A DNA stretch of 64,000 bases from Nitrospirae bacterium MYbin3. Lineage in GTDB: Bacteria; Nitrospirota; Thermodesulfovibrionia; Thermodesulfovibrionales; Dissulfurispiraceae. This document shows positions 2,338-42,875 of the stretch, piece after piece. The stretch lies in NCBI GenBank assembly GCA_002753335.1, contig PEAD01000001.1, positions 139,245-203,244 of the forward strand, given 5' to 3'. Each line of letters starts with the position of its first letter. Position 1 is the stretch's first letter. The translations under genes were made by a program, and so were the position numbers. Below the pieces are notes generated by a model that was not told the DNA's origin, did not search any database, and saw only the letters and a list, made by a program, of their open reading frames with translations.

Positions 2338-2988
2338 ATGGGAAAGGTAATAGCGATAGACGGACCTTCGGGCGCAGGCAAAAGCAGTGTTTCAAAGGCG
2401 ATAGCAGAAAAGCTGGGCTTTCAGTTTCTGGATACAGGGGCCCTTTACAGGGCTATAGCATTGCATCTAAGACGAAAAGAGCTTTCTGATGATGCTTTAT
2501 ATGACGAAACATCAAATGCAATAAAGGGGATAACCATTGCGTTCAGTAATGACCGAGTTTTTTTAAATGGCAAGGATGTATCTGATGCGATACGCACCAC
2601 CGAAGCAGGACATTATGCATCCATTTTTTCGGCAAAGAAAGCGGTGAGAGATGCACTTTTAAGCATTCAGCGAGATGCTGCAGTTAACCATGATGTTGTC
2701 GCTGAGGGACGTGACATGGGAACTGTGGTTTTCCCGGATGCATGGAAAAAGTTTTACCTCGATGCTTCTGAGGAGGGGCGGGCTAAAAGGCGCTACGACC
2801 AGCTGCAAGGCAAAGGAGTAGAGATAACAATAGAAGAGGCGCTTAACGATGTTAGAGAGCGGGACTTAAGAGACAGCAAAAGAGATATCGCACCGTTGAA
2901 AAAAGCGGACGATGCGATTTGTATAGATTCCACCTTTTTAAGTTTGGACGAGGTTGTTGAAAAAATACTCAGCTGCATAGATGAATAG
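2338..2988 (+). CDS. cmk: Cytidylate kinase
   Basis: 216-aa ORF with P-loop GPSGAGKSS followed by LDTGALYRA. Conserved aroA-cmk arrangement. Confidence 0.93.
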   Translation: MGKVIAIDGPSGAGKSSVSKAIAEKLGFQFLDTGALYRAIALHLRRKELSDDALYDETSNAIKGITIAFSNDRVFLNGKDVSDAIRTTEAGHYASIFSAKKAVRDALLSIQRDAAVNHDVVAEGRDMGTVVFPDAWKKFYLDASEEGRAKRRYDQLQGKGVEITIEEALNDVRERDLRDSKRDIAPLKKADDAICIDSTFLSLDEVVEKILSCIDE

Positions 2989-3026
2989 TCAATAGATTAC
3001 AGTTGCTCTTGTTATAATTAATCATC

Positions 3027-4415
3027 ATGAAAAAATTTCCGAGGTTGGTTGTTGCGGGTATCCGCGGCGGGAGCGGCAAGACCACGCTATCGTTATCGCT
3101 GATAGCTGCGTTTAGAAGAAGAAAAGGGCTTAAGGTGGGTCCTTTTAAAAAAGGCCCCGATTATATAGACGCCGGATGGATGTCTGTTGCAGCAGGCGGT
3201 CCATGCTATAACCTCGATACTTTTCTTGTGCCGCAGGAGCGCATTATACCTTCTTTTACCGGTCATTTTTCGGGAGGCATTGCGATTATTGAGGGCAACC
3301 GGGGGCTTTATGACGGAATGGATGCCGAGGGCTCATACAGCACCGCAGAACTCTCAAAACTGCTAAAAAGCCCGGTGCTTCTTATTCTTGACTGTACAAA
3401 GATGACTAGAACCGCTGCCGCTATTGTGCTTGGGTGCATGAATCTCGACAGTGATGTAAATATAGGCGGTATTGTTCTGAATCAGGTTTCGAGCAGCCGA
3501 CATGAGTCGGTGGTAAGGGTTTCTATCGAAAAATATTGTTCTGTGCCTGTTCTCGGTGCATTTCCACGGCTTAAGGCAGAGGAGCTTCCTGAGCGCCACA
3601 TGGGGTTAACGCCTTGCTATGAGCATCCGGATACCGAAACCGCTATAACACTGCTTGAGCAGATGGCAGAAAAATATCTGGATCTGGATAAAATTTTAGA
3701 TCTGGCATTATCCGCGCCGCCGCTTGATTTTCACATAGATAAGACAGTTGTGCGGACAAGGCCGGAGCCGGATGTGAGAATAGGGATAATAAAGGATTCT
3801 GCCTTTCAGTTTTATTATCAGGAAAACCTCGAAGCTCTTGAAGATTGCGGGGCCGAACTTGTTCCTGTGAATGCCCTGTCTGATGCTGTGCTTCCGGACA
3901 TAGACGGCCTTTACATAGGCGGGGGCTTCCCCGAAACCAATGCTATAAAACTTGCGGAAAACGAGAGATTTAGAAATTCGGTGAGGGATGCTGCCGAAAA
4001 AGGCCTTCCTATTTATGCTGAATGCGGCGGGTTGATGTTCCTTGGCGAATCTATAGAGGTTGCAGGAAGCACATACCCAATGGCAGGGGTTTTGCCTGTA
4101 AAGTTTGCGATGCACAAAAAACCGCAGGCGCATGGCTATGCGATTGTGGAGGTTGAAGCCGACAATCCATTTCATAAGCAGGGAACAGTGCTTCACGGCC
4201 ATGAGTTCCACTATTCTTCGGTTGTGGAAACGACCGGCCGAAAAGGCTGCTCAACAGCGCTTAAGATGAAAAGAGGCCACGGAATAAAAGACAAGAAAGA
4301 CGGACTATGCTATAAAAATGTTTTTGCCGCATACACGCACATTCATGCGCATGGAGCGCCTGATTGGGCCGGGGCTTTTACGGCAAAGGCGCGTGAATTC
4401 AGGGAGGGAAGATGA
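3027..4415 (+). CDS. dsrN: Cobyrinic acid a,c-diamide synthase family amidase, DsrN-like by context
   Basis: 462-aa ORF. N-terminal nucleotide-binding GGSGKTT and a C-terminal glutamine amidotransferase region with AECGGLMFL (Cys nucleophile). Located in a dsr locus upstream of dsrC and dsrMKJOP. Assignment as DsrN rather than CbiA is contextual. Confidence 0.75.
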   Translation: MKKFPRLVVAGIRGGSGKTTLSLSLIAAFRRRKGLKVGPFKKGPDYIDAGWMSVAAGGPCYNLDTFLVPQERIIPSFTGHFSGGIAIIEGNRGLYDGMDAEGSYSTAELSKLLKSPVLLILDCTKMTRTAAAIVLGCMNLDSDVNIGGIVLNQVSSSRHESVVRVSIEKYCSVPVLGAFPRLKAEELPERHMGLTPCYEHPDTETAITLLEQMAEKYLDLDKILDLALSAPPLDFHIDKTVVRTRPEPDVRIGIIKDSAFQFYYQENLEALEDCGAELVPVNALSDAVLPDIDGLYIGGGFPETNAIKLAENERFRNSVRDAAEKGLPIYAECGGLMFLGESIEVAGSTYPMAGVLPVKFAMHKKPQAHGYAIVEVEADNPFHKQGTVLHGHEFHYSSVVETTGRKGCSTALKMKRGHGIKDKKDGLCYKNVFAAYTHIHAHGAPDWAGAFTAKAREFREGR

Positions 4416-16367: not shown

Positions 16368-18911
16368 ATGAAAGAGCGTTTCGACTTTAACGAAATAGAG
16401 CCGAAGTGGCAGAAATACTGGGCTGAAGAGGCCGCAGCCAAATCATCTGCTGATGCCTCGAAAAAGAAGTTCTACTGCCTTGAGATGTTCCCGTACCCTT
16501 CCGGCAAGATTCATATGGGCCATGTGAGGAATTATGCTATAGGCGATGTTATAGCCCGATATAAACGCATGCGCGGTTTCAATGTGCTTCACCCTATGGG
16601 CTGGGACGCTTTTGGAATGCCAGCAGAAAACGCCGCTATAAAAAATAAGGTACATCCTTCAAAATGGACATATGAAAATGTTGCCTCTATGAAACAGCAG
16701 CTCGACAGGCTTGGTCTGAGCTATGACTGGGACAGGGAAGTCACAACCTGCAATCCTGAATACTATCGCTGGAACCAGTGGTTTTTTCTTAAGATGCTCG
16801 AAAAAGGGCTTGCCTACAGGAAAACTTCATTTGTAAACTGGTGTCCCTCTTGCGCCACTGTGCTGGCCAATGAGCAGGTGGTTGACAACGGCTGCTGGCG
16901 CTGCGATTCTGTTGTTGTTCAGAAAGAGCTTGAGCAGTGGTTTTTCCGGATAACCCGCTATGCCGAAGAACTGCTTCAGGGTTGTGATGACTTAAGCGGC
17001 TGGCCCGAACGGGTTGCGGTGATGCAGAAAAACTGGATAGGCAAGAGCGAAGGCGCAGAAGTGGATTTTGCGATAGAGGGCAGGAGCGAGAAACTAAAGA
17101 TTTTTACCACCCGTCCCGACACTCTTTTTGGCGTTACCTTTATGTGCATTGCTGCTGCTCATCCGCTTGCAGAAACGCTTACAAAAGATAAAACCGCCTT
17201 AGAAGTGGTCAAGGCCAAATACGGCAAAGAAGATGATAAGGTTGGACACTTTACCGGACAATATGCGATAAACCCGCTCAACAATGAGCGGGTGCCGATT
17301 TATATTGCAAACTTTGTTCTCATGGAATACGGAACCGGCGCGATAATGTCGGTGCCTGCGCATGACCAGAGAGATTTTGAGTTTGCAAAAAAATACGGCC
17401 TGCCCATAAAAACAGTGATTCAGTCAACAGTCGGCAGTCGGCAGTCGGACGAATCTCTTACAGAAGCTTTCGAAGGCGAAGGCGTTCTAATTAATTCAGG
17501 AAAATTCAGCGGCGCTAAAAACAGCGAAGCAAAAGGTGCGATAGCAGCTTTTGTAGAGGCGCAGGGATTAGGCAAAAAGACTATCAAATATAAACTCAGG
17601 GATTGGGGAATATCCCGTCAGCGCTATTGGGGCACGCCGATACCGATAATCTATTGCGAAAAATGCGGAGCAGTGCCTGTACCAGAAAAAGATCTGCCCG
17701 TAATCCTGCCCGAAGCAGTGCAGTTCAGCGGCACCGGCGGCTCGCCGCTTCTCGATATAAAAGATTTTGTGAATGCCGAATGCCCTAAATGCAAAGTACC
17801 TGCACGCAGAGAAACCGATACTATGGATACATTTGTGGATTCTTCTTGGTATTTTATACGCTACTGTTCCAAGAAAGGCGAAGAGCCTTTGAATAAAAAC
17901 AACATCGCTTATTGGATGCCTGTTGATCAGTATATTGGCGGCATAGAGCATGCTGTGCTTCATCTCCTCTATTCCCGATTTTTCACCAGATGCCTGCGTG
18001 ACCTTGGCATAATCACTCAAAGCGAACCATTCGGCAATCTTCTAACGCAGGGGATGGTCTGCAAAGAAACATGGAAATGTCCTGAACACGGCTGGCTTTT
18101 TCCTGAAGAAGTTTCTAACGGCCAATGCCCGCAATGCGGAAATGCTGTTGACAAAGGCCGGGTCGAGAAGATGTCGAAGTCCAAGAAGAATGTTATCGAT
18201 CCGGACGCACTTATAAAAAGGTACGGCGCCGATACTATGCGGCTGTTCTCGCTGTTTGCCGCGCCTCCAGAGAGAGACCTTGAGTGGGCTGATCAGGGGG
18301 TTGAGGGCGCATACAGATTTTTGCATAAAATCTGGAGTCTTGTTTTCAGGTGCAGGCAGGACATTTTAAAAGGAAAAGAGATTGCATCTAAAAATGGTTA
18401 TTCCCCTGCAGTTACGCCGCTGCTCAGAAAAACTCACCAGACAATTAAAAAGGTAACCACTGACATAGAAAAAGATTATCATTTCAACACCGCAATCGCG
18501 GCTATGATGGAGCTTGTGAACGAGATGGCATCTTTTAAAACCGAAAAGGACGAGGATAGGGCAGTTTTTTTCGTCGCAATAAAAAATCTGGTTCTTATGC
18601 TTTCTCCGTTCGCGCCCCACTTTTCGGAAGAGTTGTGGCTCGAAATTGGAGAACTCCCCGGCATCTATAAGCATGCGTGGCCTGAATGGAACAAAGAATT
18701 TGCTGAGGATGAAGATGTTGAGCTGGTGGTTCAGGTCAATGGAAAATTGAAGGCAAAACTGCTCGTTCCTGCCGGGCTTTCTGATGAAGAGGCAAAAGAC
18801 AGGGCTCTAAATGATGCTAAGATAAAAGAGGCTACGGAAGGGAAGACCATAAAAAAAGTGATTGTAGTCAAAGGCAGCTTGGTAAACATAGTGGTAGGGG
18901 GCGGTGCGTGA
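16368..18911 (+). CDS. leuS: Leucyl-tRNA synthetase
   Basis: 847-aa ORF with the class I HIGH-type motif ([12 protein letters not shown]) and KMSKS ([10 protein letters not shown]). Confidence 0.97.
17421..17448 (+). repeat. Heptanucleotide tandem repeat inside leuS
   Basis: CAGTCAA CAGTCGG CAGTCGG CAGTCGG (one imperfect and three perfect units), encoding QSTVGSRQS within the coding frame. Confidence 0.9.
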
Positions 18912-31771: not shown

Positions 31772-31861
31772 GGAGGGGTGGCTGAGCGGTTGAAAGCGGC
31801 GGTCTTGAAAACCGTTGTGGGGGTGACTCCACCCAGGGTTCGAATCCCTGCCCCTCCGCCA
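31772..31861 (+). tRNA. tRNA-Ser (anticodon UGA)
   Basis: Cloverleaf readable by eye. Acceptor GGAGGGG/CCCCTCC, anticodon stem GCGGT/ACCGT with loop CTTGAAA (anticodon TGA), long variable arm GTGGGGGTGACTCCACCCA, T arm CAGGG-TTCGAAT-CCCTG and encoded CCA. Confidence 0.95.
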
Positions 31862-32021: not shown

Positions 32022-32378
32022 GTGGCTAAAACGATAATCTTTTACAGAACAACAGAAGGCAAGTGCCCTGTGAAGGAGTTTCTTGATTCTCTTTCTGCAA
32101 AGGCAGCGCAAAAAACAACATGGGTATTAAGCCTGATTGAAGAGCTCGACATAGTGCCGGCATCATATTTCAAGAAGCTTATCAGCACCGAGAATATCTG
32201 GGAATGCAGGATACAGTCAGGCTCCAACGCGTATAGAATATTCTGCTTTTTTGATGGAAGCTCTGTTGTTGTGCTGACGCATGGCATGATTAAAAAAACG
32301 CAGAAGACACCTCAGCGTGAAATTGAAAGAGCCGAGGCATACAGGAAAGATTATTCACAGAGGAGGGTAAGGAAATGA
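32022..32378 (+). CDS. Type II toxin, Gp49/HigB (RelE superfamily)-like
   Basis: 118-aa ORF with a GTG start. Sequence pattern of phage Gp49-like killer proteins (FYRTTEGKCPVKEFLDSL...WECRIQSGSNAYRIFCFFDG...VVLTHGMIKKTQKTP). Upstream of and overlapping an HTH antitoxin gene. Confidence 0.78.
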   Translation: MAKTIIFYRTTEGKCPVKEFLDSLSAKAAQKTTWVLSLIEELDIVPASYFKKLISTENIWECRIQSGSNAYRIFCFFDGSSVVVLTHGMIKKTQKTPQREIERAEAYRKDYSQRRVRK

Positions 32379-32650
32379 GTGATCTAAGAAAATACATTAC
32401 CGAAAGAAAAAAGAGGGACAAGGGTTTTGCCGGAGGCTATGACGAGGGCTACGAACAGTTCAAGATTGGCGTGGTTTTGAAGCAGGCCCGCGAGACCTCA
32501 GGAATAACACAGGAAGAACTCGCCCGAAGGCTGAAAACAAAGAAGACCGCCATATCACGGATCGAAAACCATGCAGAAGATATTAAACTGTCCACCTTGG
32601 AGAAGGTCGCTCACGCTCTAGGGAAAAGGCTTGAAGTGAAAATCGCATAG
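32375..32650 (+). CDS. XRE-family HTH antitoxin (HigA-like)
   Basis: 91-aa ORF overlapping the toxin stop (ATGA). HTH segment GITQEELARRLKTKKTAISRIEN. Confidence 0.82.
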   Translation: MSDLRKYITERKKRDKGFAGGYDEGYEQFKIGVVLKQARETSGITQEELARRLKTKKTAISRIENHAEDIKLSTLEKVAHALGKRLEVKIA

Positions 32651-32759
32651 AATGCCGATAAGATGTGGCTGCTACGCCTGCGCTCCATTTTGCAACCACA
32701 AGGTTTGTCATAGACATCACTTGAAAAGATTTGAAAGATTCGAAAAAAGATTCAAAAAG

Positions 32760-32788
32760 TTGACACAGAAAAACATATATGCTAATCT
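32760..32788 (+). promoter_or_regulatory. Sigma70-like promoter upstream of the repeat tract and first MCP
   Basis: TTGACA (32760-32765), 17-nt spacer, TAATCT (32783-32788). Preceded by repeated AGATTYGAAA-like motifs at 32727-32758. Confidence 0.45.
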
Positions 32789-32868
32789 TTTTACTCGGGG
32801 AAAATGGGGAGAAAGTGAGTTATACACAGCGAGCCTCACATCGCTTGTGTAAGAAAAAATATGCATGA

Positions 32869-32933
32869 TACACCCAAAAACTACACCCAAAAACTACACC
32901 CAAAAACTACACCCAAAAACTACACCCAAAAAC
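32869..32933 (+). repeat. Perfect tandem repeat, 13 bp x 5 (TACACCCAAAAAC)
   Basis: Five identical contiguous 13-nt units, read directly. Located between two ATG codons (32861, 32865) and the open reading frame of the downstream MCP. Confidence 0.97.
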
Positions 32934-33120
32934 TGACGATATCCTAATCGTCAACCTTCCAAGGCTTAAGGTTTTATACCCGGTTCTTATATCCGGCGTT
33001 GCCCTTATAGCGTGGCTCCTTATATTTTTTCTGGATGATTTTATAAAAAGCCTTATTCCTATCGCTGATACCGCTACTAAAGATGCCTTCAGCCATGCCT
33101 TATTTGTAATTGCGGAAGGC

Positions 33121-34248
33121 TTGGTCTTTTTGGTGGTTACAATCTACTTTCTCGGCAGACCTCTTACCCAAATCGTAGGATTAGAAAAAGAAATTCTTGA
33201 TAAATACGCACTGCTTAATATTCTTGACAAGACAAGAGAAAACAAAATCAAACATTTCTTTTCTTCTCAAAACAAGGTGCATGAACTGACAAAAGCCCAC
33301 CTTGATAACATCGTTTCTACGACGGACGATGCTGCAAACGGCATCATAAATCAGGCGCAGAGCGTGGATGAATCGATGACCAGCCTTATTACAAAGGTTA
33401 ATGGCCTTAAAAAGAGCAGTATCGAATTTGCAGAAGAAACCAAGGCTACCGTAATGGACAACGAAAAGACTATCGTGAGCCTTAGGCAGTATATAAACGA
33501 AAGGATGAGCGATCTTGATGATGACGCAAGAATGATAAAGACTCTTACAGAGGACGCCACCAATATGGCCAGACTGGTACAGCTTATGAAGGACATAAGT
33601 GACCAGACCAACCTGCTTGCTCTGAATGCGGCCATAGAAGCGGCAAGGGCGGGCGAACAAGGCAGGGGGTTTGCTGTCGTGGCATCGGAAGTCAGAAAAC
33701 TTTCTGTTCAATCTGAACATGCTGCGGGAGAAATAGGCAAGGCCATAACCAGCATGGCAAATAATATCAAGAACGAGCTGGGCAAAAAGATTTCTACTGC
33801 GAACACCGAAAAAGAAAAGGCTATTCTTCACCGTCTTGAGGGGCAGTTATCGGCGCTTGCGGACAGTTACCGGTGTTTGGACCATATGAACACCGAGATA
33901 CTTGAGCAGGTGGGCTCCAGTACTGGTGATGTTGCGAATGAGATTCTTCTAATGCTCGCAAACATTCAGTTTCAGGACATAACCCGCCAGCAGATAGAGC
34001 AGGTGGTTGCTGTTTTGCAGGAGATTGACCAGTATTCAGGCAGGCTTGTTGAGTGGATCGAAAAAGAGCATAACTGCGCCACTGATACATGCGAACTGCC
34101 TGACATGGATGTAGATGAGATACACAACAGGCATTACAAGATGGAAAAGCAGCGCACTATTCATAATGAAGTTATTAAATCCCAGAAAAAATCAGCAGGC
34201 AGTCAAACCAAAGCAAACAAAGATGAAGGCGCGCTCGAATTTTTTTAA
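33121..34248 (+). CDS. Methyl-accepting chemotaxis protein (short, membrane-anchored); 5' end apparently displaced by the upstream repeat tract
   Basis: MCP signalling hairpin motif [34 protein letters not shown]. The first canonical start in frame is TTG 33121. The same frame is open back to 32869 and encodes two hydrophobic helices, and TTG 33121 lies inside the second helix. Confidence 0.85.
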
Positions 34249-34266: not shown

Positions 34267-34635
34267 ATGGGCAAAATGATAATGATAATTGACGATTCCG
34301 CATCAATAAGGTCGGTGGTCGGCATAACACTTAAAAAATCGGGCTATGATGTGCTTGAGGCCTCAGACGGCAAGGATGCGCTGGCCAAGCTTACCGGCCA
34401 GAAGGTAAACCTGATGGTCTGCGATGTGAACATGCCGAATATGGACGGCATATCTTTTTTAAAGGCGGTAAAGCAAAACCCCACCTACAAATTCACGCCT
34501 GTGATAATGCTTACGACCGAATCACAAGAATCTCTGAAGCAGGAAGGCAAAGCGGCCGGAGCAAAGGCATGGATGGTCAAGCCTTTTAAGCCGGATATGC
34601 TGCTGGATGCTGTTGTTCAACTGATTCTTCCTTAA
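34267..34635 (+). CDS. cheY: CheY-like single-domain response regulator
   Basis: 122-aa ORF with the receiver acidic pocket IIDDS, phospho-acceptor in MVCDVNMPNMDG, and the conserved T (LTTE) and K (KPF). Confidence 0.9.
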   Translation: MGKMIMIIDDSASIRSVVGITLKKSGYDVLEASDGKDALAKLTGQKVNLMVCDVNMPNMDGISFLKAVKQNPTYKFTPVIMLTTESQESLKQEGKAAGAKAWMVKPFKPDMLLDAVVQLILP

Positions 34636-34653
34636 TCTCAAGCCGGAGGATAT

Positions 34654-34947
34654 ATGAACTTTAATGCCGAAAAAAGTGAAGGCTTTTGCAAAATGACGAT
34701 AGAGGGTGAAATGAACATCTACCACGCGGCAGAACTGAAAAAAGCTATCTTCGAAAACTTTGCTGACAGCACCGCTATTGAACTGGACCTTTTGCAGGTA
34801 ACAGAGATGGACACCTCCGGTTTCCAGATTATATATCTTCTCAAGAGAGAGTCTGATGCCTCTAACAAACAGTTCAGGATAACGAAGCAGAGCGAAGCCG
34901 TAACTGCTGTAATAAATCTTTACAATCTGGCTTCTCATTTCAACTAA
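34654..34947 (+). CDS. STAS-domain protein (anti-sigma-factor antagonist-like)
   Basis: 97-aa ORF with a SpoIIAA/RsbV-like pattern, including the phosphorylatable-Ser region LLQVTEMDTSGFQIIYLL. Confidence 0.78.
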   Translation: MNFNAEKSEGFCKMTIEGEMNIYHAAELKKAIFENFADSTAIELDLLQVTEMDTSGFQIIYLLKRESDASNKQFRITKQSEAVTAVINLYNLASHFN

Positions 34948-34960
34948 CACAGGAGACCAA

Positions 34961-37120
34961 ATGGAAGAAGTCGATCTCATAAGACAAGTTTTTCTGACAG
35001 AAAGCGTTGAGCATCTTCAAAACATCGAGGACTGCCTGCTCGCTATGGAAACCAATCCTGACGACACAGACACTATAAATGCGCTGTTCAGGGCTGCACA
35101 CACCATCAAGGGCTCTTCCGGAATCGTGGGACTCGAAATCGTCGAAAAGTTCACACATAATGTCGAAAGCCTGCTCGATAAAGTAAGAAGGGGCGAACTC
35201 AGGATAAACGCCGATATTACCGAGGTTCTGCTTAAATGCCGTGACCATATAGCCTCTCTTATAGAGATCGAGACGGACGGCAGGCTCCTTGAGGGCGAGC
35301 TGAAGGCAACCGGGGAAGCATTGAAGAGCGAACTTCTGAAGCTGCTTGGCGCAAAACAGGAAGAGGATAAAAAAATCGAAGCGTCTGCGGTTGTGGAAGC
35401 TGCCCCCTCATATAATGCCTCAGAAACCTCGAACTGGCACCTGTCTTTGAGGTTTTCGCAAAACGTGCTTCAGGACGGCATGGACCCTATATCTTTCATA
35501 AATTACCTTTCGCGTATCGGCGAGATCGTATATCTGGCTACTTTGACAGACACTATGCCATCGCTTGAGGAGATGAATCCAGAAAACTGCTATTTGGGCT
35601 TTGAGCTTGAGTTCAAGACCGATTTTGACAAAAAGACGATAGACGATGTTTTTGAGTTTGTTCGCGAAGACAGTCAGATAAGGATTCTTCCTCCGCACAG
35701 TTCTGTTTCATCCTATGTTGAATTAATCAGAAGCCTTCCTGAAGACCCGCTTAGGTTGGGCGAATTGCTTGTTAAGGGCGGCGCACTTACCCAGTCCGAA
35801 CTTGACGCGGCCCTGCAGGAGCAGGATGAGTCTAAAGGCCGGCTCGGAGAAATCCTTGTAAAAGACAGCGTTGTTCATCCCGAGGTTGTTGAAGCAGCGG
35901 TTGAAAAGCAGAAGCGGGCGCGTGAGGTGAAGTCTCTGGAGAGCCAGACCATAAGAGTGGATATAAACAAACTTGATCAGCTTGTGAATATGGTGGGAGA
36001 GCTTGTGATAACAGGGGCCAACATCAACCAGCAGGCGCAGAGGCTTCAGGACGGCAGTCTGCTGGAATCGGCCTCGGCCATGTCCCGTCTTGTGGAAGCA
36101 ATACGGGAGAGGTCGATGCAGGTGCGCATGGTACCTATCAATGAGGTATTTACCCGCTTCAACAGGGTGGTGCGCGACATCTGCCACGACAGCGGCAAAG
36201 AGATCGAGCTTGTGATAAACGGCGGAGACACCGAAGTGGACAAGACGGTTGTAGAGAAGATAAGCGATCCGCTTATGCATCTGGTGCGCAATGCGGCTGA
36301 CCACGGCCTTGAAATGCCGGAGGCAAGAGCCGCAAAAGGCAAGCGGGCAAAGGGTGTTTTAAAGTTAAACGCCTTTCATGACGCAGGCTGCATAGTTATC
36401 GAGGTTGTGGATGACGGCGCCGGGCTGAACAAAGAAAAAATAATCAAGAAAGCTCTCGAAAGGGGCATGCTTAACCAGTCACAGATACAGACAATGACCG
36501 ACGGCGAGATATACAGGCTTATATTCGAAGCCGGTCTTTCGACCGCAGAACAGATTACCAAACTGTCAGGCAGAGGCGTGGGCATGGATGTTGTGCGGAA
36601 AAATATCGAGGCTTTGAGAGGCACTGTAGAGGTTTCGAGTCAGGAAAATCAGGGCACGACCGTAAGCATAAGACTGCCTCTCACCCTTGCTATCATCGAC
36701 GGCTTTCTTGTCGGCATCGGCGATTCTTCTTTCGTTATACCTCTTGATATGGTTGTGGAGTGCGTTGAACTTTCAGAGGCCTACCGCGAATCAAAGGACA
36801 GACGCAGCTACATAAATCTGCGCGGTGAGGTGCTGCCGTACCTTAGATTGAAAGACCTTTTTGAGGAATCTTCAGAGGTGAGCAAGTACGAAAATATAGT
36901 GGTGGTTAAATATCTAGGTTTTAAAGTCGGCCTTGTGGTTGACAACCTGTTCGGAGAGGTTCAGGCGGTTATCAAGTCTCTCGGAAGACTTTATAAAGAC
37001 ATAGAGGGAGTCTCGGGCGCAACGATACTGGGCGACGGAACAGTAGCACTGATTCTGGATATACCGAGGCTTGTGAGCATTGCAGAGAAAATGGAACATC
37101 TTGTAACAGATTCTCAATAA
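34961..37120 (+). CDS. cheA: Chemotaxis histidine kinase CheA
   Basis: 719-aa ORF. Hpt domain with AAHTIKGSSG. HATPase boxes HLVRNAADHGLE, DDGAGL and GRGVGMDVV. C-terminal CheW-like domain. Confidence 0.95.
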   Translation: MEEVDLIRQVFLTESVEHLQNIEDCLLAMETNPDDTDTINALFRAAHTIKGSSGIVGLEIVEKFTHNVESLLDKVRRGELRINADITEVLLKCRDHIASLIEIETDGRLLEGELKATGEALKSELLKLLGAKQEEDKKIEASAVVEAAPSYNASETSNWHLSLRFSQNVLQDGMDPISFINYLSRIGEIVYLATLTDTMPSLEEMNPENCYLGFELEFKTDFDKKTIDDVFEFVREDSQIRILPPHSSVSSYVELIRSLPEDPLRLGELLVKGGALTQSELDAALQEQDESKGRLGEILVKDSVVHPEVVEAAVEKQKRAREVKSLESQTIRVDINKLDQLVNMVGELVITGANINQQAQRLQDGSLLESASAMSRLVEAIRERSMQVRMVPINEVFTRFNRVVRDICHDSGKEIELVINGGDTEVDKTVVEKISDPLMHLVRNAADHGLEMPEARAAKGKRAKGVLKLNAFHDAGCIVIEVVDDGAGLNKEKIIKKALERGMLNQSQIQTMTDGEIYRLIFEAGLSTAEQITKLSGRGVGMDVVRKNIEALRGTVEVSSQENQGTTVSIRLPLTLAIIDGFLVGIGDSSFVIPLDMVVECVELSEAYRESKDRRSYINLRGEVLPYLRLKDLFEESSEVSKYENIVVVKYLGFKVGLVVDNLFGEVQAVIKSLGRLYKDIEGVSGATILGDGTVALILDIPRLVSIAEKMEHLVTDSQ

Positions 37121-37214
37121 AAAATACCAGAAAGGAGGGTTTTGCTCAGGCAGGTTAATAGCATACGGGTAATCGGGAGAGAAATTAATCTTAACAAACA
37201 AGAGGAGGAACAAC

Positions 37215-38903
37215 ATGCAGTGGTACCTGAATCTTAAAATAGGCGTGAAGTTATTGTCAGGTTTTATGCTTGTGGCTTTAATAGCGGGCATTATCGGTTT
37301 TGTGGGCATAAAAGGCATAAAGGATATAGATGAGGCTGATACTCTTATGTATGAAAAGGTTGTAGTTCCGCTTAATGATGCGGGCGATTTATCCATAGCA
37401 TTTCAGCGCATGCGGGTGAATCTGAGAGATTTGATAACGGCCACTAAGGATGAGGATATCCAGAGATTTGCCAACAGAATAAAAGAGCTTAGAGAAATTA
37501 TTGATAAAAATGCGGCTGCTGTTGAGAAGAGCATGGTAACGGAAGAAGGTAAAAAACTCTATGCCACTTTTGCTGAAACAAGAAAAGTATATGGCCCACT
37601 TGTTGATAAGATGGTAGTGCTGGCAAAAGAAAACAAGGATGCAGAGGCTCTTGCCTTAATGCAAGGAGAGGGGGGAAAGGCTTCTCGGGCTGAGCAGGAG
37701 GCTATAGAAAAAATGCTGGATGCCAAAGTTGCGCTTGGAAAGAAGACCGCTGCAGACAATACGGCGCTTGCAAATAATGCAACCAGAATTATGATTGGAT
37801 TAGTAATAGGCGGAGTAGTTATCTCTATAATCCTTGGCATATTCATATCGCGCATAATCAGCAGGGCTTTGAGCGAGGGTGTAACAGTCGCCAACACTCT
37901 TGCTGATGGGGATTTGAGAATAAACATTGATGTTAAGAGCAAAGATGAAACGGGACAACTCCTTGAAGCGCTTAGAAATATGTTAGCTAAGTTGAAGAGC
38001 ATAGTTGGAGAAGTAAAGACGGCGGCCGACAATGTGGCGTCGGGCTCGCAGGAATTAAGTTCAGGCGCACAGCAGATATCTCAGGGCGCAACAGAGCAGG
38101 CAGCATCTGTTGAAGAGACCTCATCCGCAATGGAGGAGATGACCTCAAACATCAAACAGAATTCTGACAATGCGCAGCAGACAGAGAAGATTGCGCAGAA
38201 ATCGGCGGTTGATGCGCGTGAAGGCGGCAAAGCGGTTGCTGAAACCGTAACCGCAATGAAAGAAATAGCGAGCAAGATATCGATAATAGAAGAGATAGCC
38301 AGACAAACCAACCTGCTTGCGCTGAATGCGGCGATAGAGGCGGCAAGGGCAGGAGAGCATGGCAAGGGCTTTGCTGTGGTTGCATCTGAGGTCAGAAAGC
38401 TAGCTGAAAGAAGCCAGACCGCAGCAGGCGAGATAAGCCATCTGTCATCATCTAGCGTGCAGATAGCGGAGAAAGCCGGAGAGATGCTGACCAAGATAGT
38501 GCCGGACATCCAGCGGACGGCAGAACTGGTGCAGGAGATAAGCGCATCCAGCAAAGAGCAGGACACAGGGGCGGAGCAGATAAACCAGTCTATACAGCAA
38601 CTGGATCAGGTAATACAGCAGAATGCCGGGGCAGCAGAAGAGTTGGCCTCCACATCAGAGGAGCTTTCATCTCAGGCCGAACAGCTTCAAAGCACAATAT
38701 CGTTTTTCAAAACTGACGATACCGGAACCGCAGCAAGAAGGGTTGTTGCAAAGAAACCAGCACACAAGATTCAGGTGGCCCACACAGCCAAAAAGATCGA
38801 AGGGCCTAAAGCGGCTAAAGCCATTACAGGCAGAGGCGTAGCTCTTGATATGAATGAGGGGGCAAAGGCCGGAGACGACGACAAGGAATTTGAGAAATAC
38901 TAA
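37215..38903 (+). CDS. Methyl-accepting chemotaxis protein (four-helix-bundle sensor, HAMP, signalling domain)
   Basis: 562-aa ORF with two TM helices flanking a periplasmic region of about 170 aa, a HAMP segment and the signalling hairpin [38 protein letters not shown]. Confidence 0.92.
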
Positions 38904-38963
38904 AGTCGGCTGGATAAAGGCCAGATAAACCTTAAACTTTACAGATAAGAAAGGAGTTTATTT

Positions 38964-39470
38964 ATGAGCGTAGCCGGCGTAACAGAAACAACGCAATACC
39001 TCACCTTCAAATTAGATGATGAAGTATTCGCGCTTGATATAGCAAAGGTAAGAGAGGTATTGGATTTTACCACAGTAACAAAGGTGCCGAGGACGCCCGA
39101 TTTTATGAGAGGCGTGATAAATCTGCGGGGCAGTGTGGTGCCTGTAGTTGACATGAAGCTGAAGTTTGGCATGTCAACAACCCAAAAGACGGTCAACACC
39201 TGCATAATCATCGTTGAGGTGGTGGTGGAAGGGGAATCAGCCATTCTTGGCGCCCTTGCCGATTCAGTGCAGGAGGTTATAGACCTTGAGCCGAACCAGA
39301 TAGAGCCTTCACCCAAGATAGGCACAAGGCTGAAGACCGAATTCATCAAGGGCATGGGCAAGAGGGACAATAACTTTATCATCATCTTGGACATAAACAA
39401 GGTCTTTTCTGCTGACGAGCTTTCGCTTGTTCAGGGAGCTAATGGCCTGCCTGCAGCCTCTGACCAGTAA
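38964..39470 (+). CDS. cheW: CheW coupling protein
   Basis: 168-aa ORF with the typical CheW pattern QYLTFKLDDEVFALDIAKVREV...VINLRGSVVPVVD. Confidence 0.9.
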   Translation: MSVAGVTETTQYLTFKLDDEVFALDIAKVREVLDFTTVTKVPRTPDFMRGVINLRGSVVPVVDMKLKFGMSTTQKTVNTCIIIVEVVVEGESAILGALADSVQEVIDLEPNQIEPSPKIGTRLKTEFIKGMGKRDNNFIIILDINKVFSADELSLVQGANGLPAASDQ

Positions 39471-39543
39471 CAATCATTTATTAAGGCATAGGCGGCATTA
39501 CGCTGCCTATGCCTTAAATCTTAAAGAACACAGAAGGGCTTAG

Positions 39544-40395
39544 ATGGATTATGTAGGCACAATGAAGCTCAAGGATTTTGAGCGGCTCAGCCGCTTCATA
39601 GAGACGGAGCTCGGCATAAAAATGCCGACGACCAAAAAGACTATGATCGAATCACGCCTGCAAAAAAGGCTCCGTATTCTCGGGCTGAAATCTTTTGATG
39701 AATACTGTGAATATCTATTCAGCGGCGACGGCATGGAAGAGGAGCTGGTGCATATGATAGACATGGTTACCACAAACAAAACCGATTTCTTCCGCGAGTC
39801 GTCACATTTTGATTATCTTGTGCAGAAGGTGCTTCCGGAGATGATAAAAGAGTCTGGATCGGGAGTAATGAATACCTTTATGGCGTGGAGCGCCGGCTGT
39901 TCAACAGGCGAGGAGCCTTACACGCTTGCTATGGTTTTAAGTGAGTTCGGCCTTAGATATCCCGGTCTTTCTTTTCAATACATGATCCTTGCGACCGACA
40001 TTTCAACGAGGGTGCTTCAGGCCGCAAGCAAAGCTACATACGCTGAAGACCGTATCAGTCCTATTTCTCTAGAGCTCAGGAAAAAGTATTTGCTAAGGAG
40101 CAGGGACAGGGAGCAGGGTCTTGTGAGGTTCGTTCCTGAGCTTAGGTCCCATGTAAGGTTTCGCAGGCTGAATTTTCTTGAAGGAGACTTCGGAATGCGC
40201 GAGCAGTTTGATGTGATTTTCTGCAGAAATGTTTTCATTTATTTCGACAAGCAGACTCAGGAGGACATTATGAGCAAGTTCTGCAGGCATCTTAAACCCG
40301 GAGGATATATATTCATAGGCCAGTCCGAAAGCTTCACAGGAACGGATCTTCCTCTCAAAAGGGTCAATCCCTCTGTATATAAAAAGGTGGCATGA
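39544..40395 (+). CDS. cheR: CheR chemotaxis protein methyltransferase
   Basis: 283-aa ORF with the SAM-binding region [14 protein letters not shown] and [10 protein letters not shown] motifs. Confidence 0.92.
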
Positions 40396-41455
40396 AAAAA
40401 ATAAGGGTTTTGATAGTTGACGATTCGGCTGTTGTAAGACAGACCCTTACCAACATTATTACATCCGACCCGGAACTCGAAATCATGGCGACCGCGGCAG
40501 ACCCTTTTATAGCGGCCGAACGGATTGCTGAAGAGGTTCCTGATGTTATAACTCTTGATGTGGAAATGCCGAGAATGGACGGCATCACCTTTTTAACCAA
40601 GATAATGAGCCAGCATCCTATTCCGATAGTAATCGTCTCAAGTCTTGCTGACGAGGGATCCGAGACGGCGATGAAGGCGTTGGAAAACGGGGCTGTGGAT
40701 ATAATCACAAAACCGAAGATGGGCACAAAGCAGTTCCTTGAGGAATCCAGAACCTTGGTCTGCGATACCATCAAAGCAGCGGCCGCGACAAAGGCCAAGA
40801 TAAAAGTTGTCAGGCCACGCAGTTCTCTGGTAGCGCCTAAACTAACAGCGGATGCTGTTCTTGCCAAGCCTACAAAGGCAATGGCACAGACAACAGAAAA
40901 AGTTATCGCGGTGGGAGCCTCCACCGGAGGTACAGAGGCGCTCAGGGAATTCCTCGAGTCCTTGCCGCTTGATTCTCCCGGTATTGTAATAGTTCAGCAC
41001 ATGCCCGAAAACTTTACGGCCGCTTTCGCAAAACGTCTTGACGGCATTTGCAGGATATCGGTTAAAGAGGCCGAAAATAACGACACTGTTATCAGGGGTA
41101 GGGCATTGATAGCACCCGGCAACAAGCACATGCTCTTAAAAAGAAGCGGTGCGAGATATTATGTCGAGGTCAAAGACGGACCTCTGGTTTCGCGTCACAG
41201 ACCTTCTGTGGATGTCCTGTTTCGTTCAGCAGCGCAGTACGGCGGCAAAAATGTTATGGGCGTAATCATGACAGGCATGGGTGATGACGGGCGCGGGGTA
41301 TGAAGGAAATGAAAGACGCCGGAGCTTTCAATATTGCACAGGACGAAGAATCCTGTGTTGTTTTCGGCATGCCTAAAAAGGCGATAGAACACGGCGCAGT
41401 TGACGAGATAGTCCCTCTGAAAAACATATCAAAAGTCATATTCGAAAATCTCTGA
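40392..41455 (+). pseudogene. cheB: CheB methylesterase/response regulator interrupted by a -1 nt frameshift
   Basis: The frame from 40392 (REC: [16 protein letters not shown]; esterase: GASTGG, VQHMP, GMGDDG) stops at TGA 41301-41303. The conserved C-terminus ([30 protein letters not shown]...) continues in another frame, open from 41288 to TGA 41453-41455. One missing base in the G-run at about 41289-41291 would restore a normal CheB. Confidence 0.8.
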
Positions 41456-41484
41456 GCATCTGTTTCTAAGTAAAAACTGGAGGA

Positions 41485-42381
41485 ATGATGTCAAAACTTA
41501 CAGACAGCGAACTGATAGCAGAGCTTAAAAACCGGTTTGAGGAACAGGGCAGGGCCCTTCATGACTTGATGGTTATGACCCGAAAACTGGAGGATGTAAA
41601 CAGCAAGCTTCAGGAGTCGGAGACTATGAAAAGCCACTTTATATCAAACATCAAAAACGAAATAAATAATCCGTTGTCAGTAATTTTGGCGATGTCCGAA
41701 ACCATGTCAGGATTACAGTCCTACGCGGTTGAAGAGATCGCTTCAATGGGAGAGTTGATCTTCACCGAAGCCTTTACACTCGATTTTCAGCTCAAAAACA
41801 TTTTTGCGGCGGCAGAGATAGAGGCTGGAGAGGCCTCTCCTTACATTTCGAATGTGGACATAGACAGCCTTTTGCGAGGATTGGTGGATGTTTATAAAAA
41901 GAGGACGTTGTCTAAAAAACTGACAATAAGTTTTGAATGGATAGGCGATGTGGTTAAAAACAGTTTTAAGACCGATTCAGAAAAGCTGGAACTAATCCTT
42001 TCAAACCTTATTTCGAACGCCATAGAATACACCTCCGAAGGCGGCAAGGTGGCGGTAAAAGCATGGCGGCATGACAATAGTCTGAACATCATAGTTGAGG
42101 ACACAGGCATAGGTATAGGCGAGGATGACAAGCAGGTTATCTTTGAACGCTTCAAGCAGCTTGAGGAAGGCGTACGTAAAAGGCACAAAGGCCACGGCTT
42201 GGGACTAAGCGTGACCAAAGCACTTGTGGAGTTGCTTGGAGGAACTATTTCTGTGGTCAGCATTAAAGACAGAGGCAGCATATTCACAGTATTTATTCCC
42301 GAGATTTCGGGGAAAGAGGGGATTGATGTTTTTTCTGATGACGGTAATGAATTTTTCTTTGAGGAGGAAACTAAATTTTAG
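41485..42381 (+). CDS. Histidine-kinase-like ATPase (DHp-like + HATPase_c) lacking the canonical H-box histidine
   Basis: 298-aa soluble ORF. The H-box position reads FISNIKNEINNPL (Asn where SHELRTPL has His). N box LISNAIEYT, G1 EDTGIGI and G2 GHGLGLS are intact. Confidence 0.8.
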   Translation: MMSKLTDSELIAELKNRFEEQGRALHDLMVMTRKLEDVNSKLQESETMKSHFISNIKNEINNPLSVILAMSETMSGLQSYAVEEIASMGELIFTEAFTLDFQLKNIFAAAEIEAGEASPYISNVDIDSLLRGLVDVYKKRTLSKKLTISFEWIGDVVKNSFKTDSEKLELILSNLISNAIEYTSEGGKVAVKAWRHDNSLNIIVEDTGIGIGEDDKQVIFERFKQLEEGVRKRHKGHGLGLSVTKALVELLGGTISVVSIKDRGSIFTVFIPEISGKEGIDVFSDDGNEFFFEEETKF

Positions 42382-42875
42382 TGCAGACCGCCACAGATAT
42401 AGAGGTAAATGAGCATTACCTTTATCCCGGACAGCTTTTTGCAGCCCCCGCCCCTTACGTAATTACTACGATACTTGGCTCCTGCGTTTCTGTCTGTTTA
42501 TGGGACCCGGTTTTAAGAATAGGCGGAATGAACCATTACCTTTTGCCTTTCTGGAACGGAGATGGTCTGCCTTCGCCCAAATACGGAAATATCGCTATCC
42601 CCAAGCTTATAGAAAAAATGCTTTCTATCGGCTCCCAAAGATCAAACCTTAAGGCAAAGGTGTTCGGAGGCGGGGCTGTGCTTGAGACATCAGGAGGTCT
42701 TCTTAATGTTGGAGAACGAAATATCATGTTATATAAAGATCTGCTTGAAAACGAAAAGATGCCGGTCTTATGCTCAGACACCGGAGGCACGCAGGGAAGA
42801 AAGGTGATCTTTCACAGCGACACCGGCGAAGTGTTTGTTAAGAAGATACAAAAGGCAATTAGACCTATTGGATAA
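42381..42875 (+). CDS. cheD: CheD chemoreceptor glutamine deamidase
   Basis: 164-aa ORF with a GTG start overlapping the preceding stop. Catalytic-Cys region TILGSCVSVCLWD and GGMNHYLLP motif. Confidence 0.9.
   Translation: MQTATDIEVNEHYLYPGQLFAAPAPYVITTILGSCVSVCLWDPVLRIGGMNHYLLPFWNGDGLPSPKYGNIAIPKLIEKMLSIGSQRSNLKAKVFGGGAVLETSGGLLNVGERNIMLYKDLLENEKMPVLCSDTGGTQGRKVIFHSDTGEVFVKKIQKAIRPIG

Follow-up and report, generated by a model that had tools for sequence, protein, structure and literature searches.

A 13-nucleotide tandem repeat between the start codons and the reading frame of an MCP-like chemotaxis gene: a plausible licA-type switch in an uncultured Nitrospirota bacterium

The 64,000-nucleotide stretch analyzed here (positions 139,245 to 203,244 of contig PEAD01000001.1, Nitrospirae bacterium MYbin3, assembly GCA_002753335.1; referred to as the window) carries a chemotaxis operon whose first gene encodes a protein resembling a methyl-accepting chemotaxis protein (MCP). 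Between two ATG codons and the reading frame of this protein, called the receptor frame in the following, lie five identical copies of a 13-nt unit, and in the assembled sequence neither ATG is in frame with the receptor. We read the locus as a translational ON/OFF switch of the licA type that operates by slippage. The array is real and the switch plausible, while the OFF state is unproven, and taken together our confidence in this reading is evenly balanced.

According to this reading, a lineage-specific array of uniform copies has grown out of codons 2–6 of the first gene of the operon, which encodes a two-helix membrane protein of the MCP type. Slipped-strand mispairing during replication would then add or remove units and, because 13 is not divisible by 3, every gain or loss would change the register between the receptor frame and the two ATGs, which lie close together. 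The assembled 5-copy allele would be OFF, with ribosomes making peptides of 23 or 28 residues that stop just past the array. OFF alleles may also depress expression of the downstream che genes by polarity. The sequence itself shows the array, the frames, the homology of the frame behind the array and the derivation of the unit from native codons. A rate of copy-number change high enough to be useful, the dominance of the 5-copy allele and the use of both ATGs are points we infer from this arrangement.

The array occupies positions 32869–32933 and consists of five perfect copies of TACACCCAAAAAC followed by one further in-register base, as the initial annotation had read directly from the letters. 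Tandem Repeats Finder (TRF) returned the same tract as 32869–32934 with a period of 13, 5.1 copies, 100 % matches and a score of 132. The sequence directly upstream, ATGCATGA, carries both ATGs. The elements on which the argument turns are the following, all on the forward (+) strand:

32861–32863, +, start codon A (ATG), in the receptor frame at 0, 3, 6 or 9 copies, preceded 7 nt upstream by UAAG only
32865–32867, +, start codon B (ATG), in the receptor frame at 1, 4 or 7 copies
32866–32868, +, TGA closing the receptor frame upstream of the array, overlapping start codon B as ATGA
32869–32934, +, tandem array (TACACCCAAAAAC)x5 plus T, copies 100 % identical, coding strand free of G, RNA predicted to be unstructured
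32899–32905, +, C_CCA_AAA heptamer in unit 3, in phase in the frame of ATG 32861
32934–32936, +, TGA ending the 23-codon peptide of ATG 32865 at five copies, from the frame table
32934–32953, +, 7-bp hairpin UGACGAU-AUCCUA-AUCGUCA directly 3' of the array, within the codons for T-D-D-I-L-I-V, from RNA folding
32945–32947, +, TAA ending the 28-codon peptide of ATG 32861 at five copies, from the frame table
32935–34248, +, MCP-like protein body of 437 codons and a stop codon, with two membrane helices, a short loop, an MCP signalling tip, a CheZ-like C-terminal region and an ..EFF end

To obtain the frame table, the locus was rebuilt in silico with 0–9 repeat units. A full-length protein results from ATG 32861 at 0, 3, 6 and 9 copies and from ATG 32865 at 1, 4 and 7 copies, and none is made at 2, 5 or 8 copies. 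A change by a single unit therefore restores the frame in either direction, yielding a protein of 456 residues at four copies and of 466 residues at six, and every three units lengthen the cytoplasmic tail of the ON alleles by 13 residues. At five copies ATG 32861 runs into TAA 32945–32947 after 28 codons and ATG 32865 into TGA 32934–32936 after 23 codons. The third frame, that of the receptor, is closed by TGA 32866–32868 and then open from 32869 to 34248; its first ATG, GTG or TTG is TTG 33121, which lies inside the second membrane helix. The stops, the open third frame and the copy-number logic proposed in the initial annotation, by which four copies fuse ATG 32865, six fuse ATG 32861 and five fuse neither, were thus all reproduced. 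Two other ways of reaching the receptor frame were considered and dropped. A start further upstream in that frame is excluded by TGA 32866, and readthrough of TGA or an alternative genetic code does not apply, since TGA terminates 14 of 50 long open reading frames, as expected for the standard code.

As in a licA-type contingency locus, the tract is perfect, with five copies at 100 % identity, and a unit length not divisible by 3 sits between ATG 32861/32865 and the homologous body that begins at ..KTDD.. Copies without a single difference point to turnover that is recent or still under way, and five of them imply repeated slippage at this site. Behind the array, the 437 codons contain neither a stop nor a further frameshift and keep the residues that are invariant in the family. 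All other long genes of the window, namely those for leucyl-tRNA synthetase, a second class I aminoacyl-tRNA synthetase, HtpG, glycogen phosphorylase and CheA, are intact as well, so that the frame break is an isolated one and coincides exactly with the repeat. An intact gene behind an array at which the frame breaks supports a working switch, as do the kept position of the gene ahead of cheY and cheA in relatives, the differing copy numbers of a 13-bp unit among Neisseria meningitidis genomes (PMC1481605) and the experimentally established licA switch, which follows the same logic of start codons and repeat (PMC2212159).

The unit itself can be traced to native coding sequence. Homologues of 430–460 amino acids, at most 48 % identical, cover 99–100 % of the receptor frame including both membrane helices, and their N-termini read MADRIKKKTDDLLFLYLP, MINKDKAHPDDLLFLYLP and MANKNNKSDDLLFFNL. 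The motif K-T-D-D-L-L of these homologues aligns with HPKTDDIL of the window, where the codons for HPKT comprise the last unit and the base that follows it. An allele with one copy, started at ATG 32865, would have a 10-residue N-terminus resembling those of the homologues, and its DNA begins with ATGATA like that of one of them (L001, MI..HP.DD). Because of this alignment and the shared ATGATA start, the unit is a duplicate of native coding sequence and not foreign DNA. Judged from this comparison, the array is an outgrowth of native codons 2–6, of which at least one unit in that phase is ancestral coding sequence, and ATG 32865 is probably the ancestral start.

The identity of the gene product was assessed by domain, structure and hydrophobicity searches. 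Its MCP signalling domain scores 99.8 bits against Pfam PF00015 (cut-off 34.6), and solved MCP structures are matched both by the single sequence (E = 2.4e-17) and by the family profile (E = 6.5e-28). The two N-terminal helices, which the initial annotation had called convincing, reach 19-residue Kyte-Doolittle means of up to 2.45 and 2.48 and are both conserved in the homologues. The protein combines membrane anchoring with a location in a che cluster, as an MCP should. No HAMP or sensor domain was found in it by Pfam, and the loop between the helices comprises only about 20 residues. In GenBank the gene is represented by MBF0328067.1 (HQL10_02830), a protein of 371 amino acids from GTG 33133. 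As homologues cover the upstream stretch including both helices, this entry is by comparison an N-terminally truncated call, and neither TTG 33121 nor GTG 33133 is the native start. The implausibility of TTG 33121 as a start, suspected beforehand from its position, is borne out in this way, and so is the conservation of the upstream open frame at the protein level. The deposited annotation conceals an intact receptor frame of 437 codons.

Its C-terminal half shows sub-threshold Pfam matches to CheZ. Within the family, Pfam CheZ is found at E ≤0.01 in 18 of 28 members (best value 4.1e-6), with all matches of the window protein below the curated cut-off, and the stored Pfam hits for the family include CheZ and CheZ_Pase. 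The family, that is positions 33700–34248 of the window together with homologues P0002–P0054, shares the MCP hairpin tip and a conserved 18-residue helix, along with a Cys pair and an acidic C-terminus ending in ..(V/I/L)(T/E)FF. We take the 18-residue helix to resemble the catalytic helix of CheZ (D143/Q147 in E. coli). A relationship to CheZ was not recovered by sequence search against solved structures, in which 1KMI appeared only at E ~1 with the single sequence and was absent with the family profile. Instead of a classical receptor, the window protein may be an MCP/CheZ hybrid anchored in the membrane.

Several observations weigh against the switch. A Shine-Dalgarno sequence is missing in front of both ATGs, whereas GGAG-type ribosome-binding sites precede the downstream genes CheY to CheW. 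The comparison with orthologous loci that had been called for was made at three syntenic loci (L001–L003), and the repeat is absent from all of them; their start codons are plain ATGs with purine-rich, Shine-Dalgarno-like motifs upstream. TRF detected no array at a further locus (L005), and both this locus and those of Magnetobacterium relatives (L006 and L007) have ordinary N-termini in translation. No repeat tract was thus seen at the same site in relatives, of which the nearest are only 47–48 % identical. Scanning the window for homopolymers and for short repeats with perfect copies returned no further candidate contingency repeat, and no copy-number variant or second assembly of the locus was present in the searched collections. 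A lone OFF allele looks equally like a simple knock-out mutation. Finally, five is exactly the number of copies to which longer arrays would collapse in an assembly at k=55, so the assembled five may be a lower bound rather than a count, and the OFF state itself is uncertain.

The search for variants covered several collections. The annotated protein of 371 amino acids, the 375-amino acid version from the TTG and the neighboring CheY were all absent from the gene-position index, and the protein cluster of the MCP-like protein has a single member, with no full-length variant among the protein clusters. A 26-mer made of two units had no match in genome, metagenome or viral collections, a 26-mer of the 3' flank had none in metagenomes, and a protein-guided scan of species-representative genomes revealed no relative. 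Three homologues that appeared truncated were inspected as possible parallel cases and rejected. The contig of P0021 (L004) carries many fragmented genes and suggests sequencing error, with multiple frameshifts at ~2600–3100 that are typical of long-read errors and do not involve repeats. P0049 (L005) contains one mid-gene frameshift after ..AQGVD (~2580–3100), again without a repeat. P0042 (413 aa; L006/L007 ~2930–3040), from Candidatus Magnetobacterium LHC-1, is merely a case of a mis-called start: it is annotated from a position inside the first membrane helix, and translation from an in-frame ATG further upstream begins with MGTNDLYFFERG.., in agreement with P0047, a longer relative.

The most serious competing explanation is that the true array holds six or more copies and that the assembler took the shortest path, which would turn the out-of-frame state into an artefact; we regard this as a real possibility, albeit not the probable one. 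De Bruijn graphs were simulated for the array set between its real flanks. At k=55, arrays of 6 to 12 copies all form a cycle whose shortest traversal is exactly 5 copies (66 nt), and the collapse floor rises with k, to 6 copies (k=77), 8 (k=99), 10 (k=127) and 11 (k=141). No exact self-repeat in the window exceeds that of the array itself, which measures 53 nt, and no 54- or 55-mer is present twice. The largest default k of metaSPAdes is 55, and the Reassemble_bins step of MetaWRAP reassembles with SPAdes and may use k=77. Illumina data were assembled with metaSPAdes 3.13.0 at default settings, and bins were refined by Reassemble_bins, in the study that is the probable source (PMC7602337). 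The metagenome-assembled genome, which carries the locus tag HQL10_, most likely belongs to this study, as judged from the naming of sister genomes. Six or seven copies would put the gene in frame with a longer low-complexity tail. On the other side, assembler and k are taken from a source study assigned in this indirect manner, a reassembly at k=77 would have had its floor at six, and SPAdes applies heuristics for loop multiplicity, while reads of 100–150 nt can span a 79-nt array. Moreover, a true 5-copy array of 66 nt makes no cycle at k=55 and would have been assembled correctly. A collapse would leave the array real and equally mutable, but it would remove the evidence that the sampled population is OFF.

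If instead five copies are genuine, the allele could still be a plain null, in which a one-off tandem multiplication inactivated the receptor and the gene is heading towards a pseudogene, so that reversibility would be irrelevant. Of the homologous loci inspected, only that of this genome has the repeat, no other contingency-type repeats occur in the 64 kb, and the unrelated internal frameshift in the L005 homologue illustrates that broken copies or assembly errors do occur. An inactivation would, however, have to be very recent, given 437 codons without a stop or frameshift that keep the family-invariant residues, and five identical units imply several successive expansions, i.e. a site that slips repeatedly. 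We consider the null allele unlikely. Expression of the 5-copy allele by recoding appears highly improbable. It would proceed by a -1 slip on C_CCA_AAA or on an A5 run in the frame of ATG 32861, or by termination-reinitiation at UAAUC (TAA 32945/AUC 32947). The heptamer is a canonical X_XXY_YYZ site in phase, a simulated -1 shift gives an uninterrupted receptor, and the TAA stop overlaps an in-frame AUC. Yet no stimulatory structure is predicted 5–9 nt downstream, the array being unstructured and the nearest hairpin (32934) lying 29 nt past the heptamer, and units 2 and 5 present the same heptamer in the phase of the receptor frame, where it would shift ribosomes out again. The homologues are single uninterrupted genes in which the two-frame layout is not conserved, and AUC is a very poor initiator. 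Least credible of all, to the point of being negligible, is the alternative that the repeats are no frame device but sites at which a regulator binds to DNA or RNA, either as iterons, which the initial annotation had raised, or as operators. Five identical direct repeats do follow a candidate promoter, and their RNA is G-free, C/A-rich and unstructured. These units abut at a 13-bp spacing, off the helical repeat, and lie within coding sequence derived from native codons. Dispersed copies of the unit do not exceed chance in the window (two matches with 2 mismatches elsewhere, 1.74 expected), the domain search of the window found no replication or partition genes near the array, and known RNA families (Rfam) have no match across 32600–33200.

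The licA-type switch can be extended to a more far-reaching scenario, which we put forward as a doubtful one. Here, a contingency switch with a 13-nt unit, well beyond the 1–9 nt covered by phase-variation screens, would gate the first gene of the ten-gene chemotaxis operon of an uncultured, probably magnetotactic environmental Nitrospirota. In OFF cells the G-free, C-rich untranslated leader may gate the remaining genes by Rho-dependent polarity, and a free-living sediment bacterium would thereby be bet-hedging its taxis.

The remaining elements of the region, likewise on the forward strand, are:

32721–32758, +, A/T-rich phased direct repeats AAAGATTYRAAA x3, abutting the -35 hexamer, from the repeat scan and TRF
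32760–32788, +, candidate sigma-70 promoter, TTGACA, 17-nt spacer, TGC-TAATCT, from reading of the sequence
32820–32852, +, hairpin in the 5' leader with 12 pairs and one bulge, ending 8 nt before ATG 32861
34267–42875, +, rest of the apparent operon: CheY, STAS protein, CheA, 4HB-HAMP MCP, CheW, CheR, CheB, histidine kinase-like protein and CheD, from the domain search

The promoter had been described as a consensus one, which overstates the case. Its -35 hexamer TTGACA (32760–32765) is perfect, but the -10 hexamer TAATCT shares only 3 of 6 positions with TATAAT, though preceded by TGC as an extended -10 element (TGn), and a promoter scan did not list the TTGACA-17-TAATCT candidate. The three A/T-rich repeats in front of it read AAAAGATTTGAAA, GAAAGATTCGAAA and AAAAGATTCAAAA, are spaced by 9 and 12 nt and represent a possible UP-like element or operator. 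A sigma-28 promoter based on GCCGATAA at 32654 was rejected, four matches in the window versus 2.4 expected not being significant. Folding of the whole leader gave a z-score of just -1.41, which is weak evidence for the hairpin at 32820–32852. A perfect inverted repeat of 11 nt, consisting of A and U only, connects AGAAAAAATAT (32852–32862) with ATATTTTTTCT (33022–33032) and may let the region of the start codons base-pair 159 nt further downstream; chance is also a possible explanation.

Directly upstream of the promoter region of the che operon lie a tRNA-Ser(UGA) gene (31772–31861) and, after it, a toxin-antitoxin-like pair consisting of a Gp49/HigB-like protein (32022–32378) and an XRE-type helix-turn-helix protein (32375–32650), the two genes overlapping by 4 nt. 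The upstream context differs at every homologous locus. Downstream, the order MCP-CheY-STAS-CheA is kept in L001 and L005 and, with one inserted gene after the MCP, in L002, while L003 has MCP-CheY-third gene-CheA, the third gene being without a Pfam STAS hit. With regard to repeats elsewhere, TRF and the repeat scans identified the array as the sole strong tandem array across the 64-kb window, which contains no homopolymers of ≥9 A/T or ≥7 G/C. The only other perfect non-trivial repeat in the window is a 7-nt x3 tract, CAGTCGG at 17428–17448, situated within the leucyl-tRNA synthetase gene (16368–18911) and in frame as assembled. A change by one unit would break this essential gene, so the tract is probably incidental.

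The closest known counterpart of the locus is licA (lic1) of Haemophilus influenzae, where start codons in two of the three frames lie upstream of (CAAT)n and slipped-strand mispairing switches expression ON and OFF (PMC2212159). In both systems the first gene of an operon has its start codons separated from its body by a repeat whose unit length is no multiple of 3, and of the three classes of copy number two give ON and the third gives OFF. They differ in that the licA unit comprises 4 nt in 6–33 copies, compared to 13 nt in five assembled copies here, and in that licA concerns a surface-antigen gene of a host-adapted pathogen instead of a chemotaxis gene of an uncultured environmental Nitrospirota. 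Switching of licA has been measured at ~10^-2 to 10^-3 per generation.

Longer units are known from Neisseria, in which pglE is phase-variable through an intragenic 7-nt unit and the 13-bp unit of N. meningitidis NMTR19 occurs in 2, 2 and 5 copies among genomes (PMC1481605). NMTR19 resembles the array described here in unit length but has no assigned function, and none of the papers that we found ties a 13-nt unit to an ON/OFF switch. Repeat screens usually end at units of 7–9 nt (PMC3234257; PMC2651432). Among chemoreceptors, tlpB of Helicobacter pylori likewise carries a variable repeat at the 5' end of its transcript, a hypervariable G-repeat in the leader that sets expression together with the small RNA RepG and also affects a co-transcribed gene (PMC8295292). 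Unlike the array of the window, this is a homopolymer in an untranslated leader that acts by small-RNA pairing with graded output and is not a switch of the coding frame. In Campylobacterota such as Arcobacter butzleri, genes for motility and chemotaxis are among the candidates for phase variation (bioRxiv 10.1101/775932). In contrast to the present case, these are mostly poly-G/C tracts of host-associated bacteria with length variation between strains.

Should the copy number prove to vary, the logic of contingency loci, known mainly from host-adapted pathogens, would extend to uncultured environmental bacteria and would act on behavior (taxis) and not only on surface antigens, and screens limited to units of ≤9 nt would miss such switches. 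Irrespective of this, where an array has been assembled to just the length of the shortest path at the largest k of the assembler, that length should be read as a lower bound. Repeat collapse of this kind can produce "pseudogenes" or "OFF alleles" with a shifted frame in metagenome-assembled genomes. The initial annotation had regarded the mechanism as not a standard one. This holds for the length of the unit, the class of gene and the lineage of the host, all of which are new, but not for the layout, as a repeat behind staggered starts is the published licA mechanism (PMC2212159) and repeats at chemoreceptor and chemotaxis genes have been described. By analogy with these systems, the design is of a known kind, and its novelty would lie in a 13-nt unit beyond the usual screening range, in the class of gene it precedes and in its environmental Nitrospirota host.

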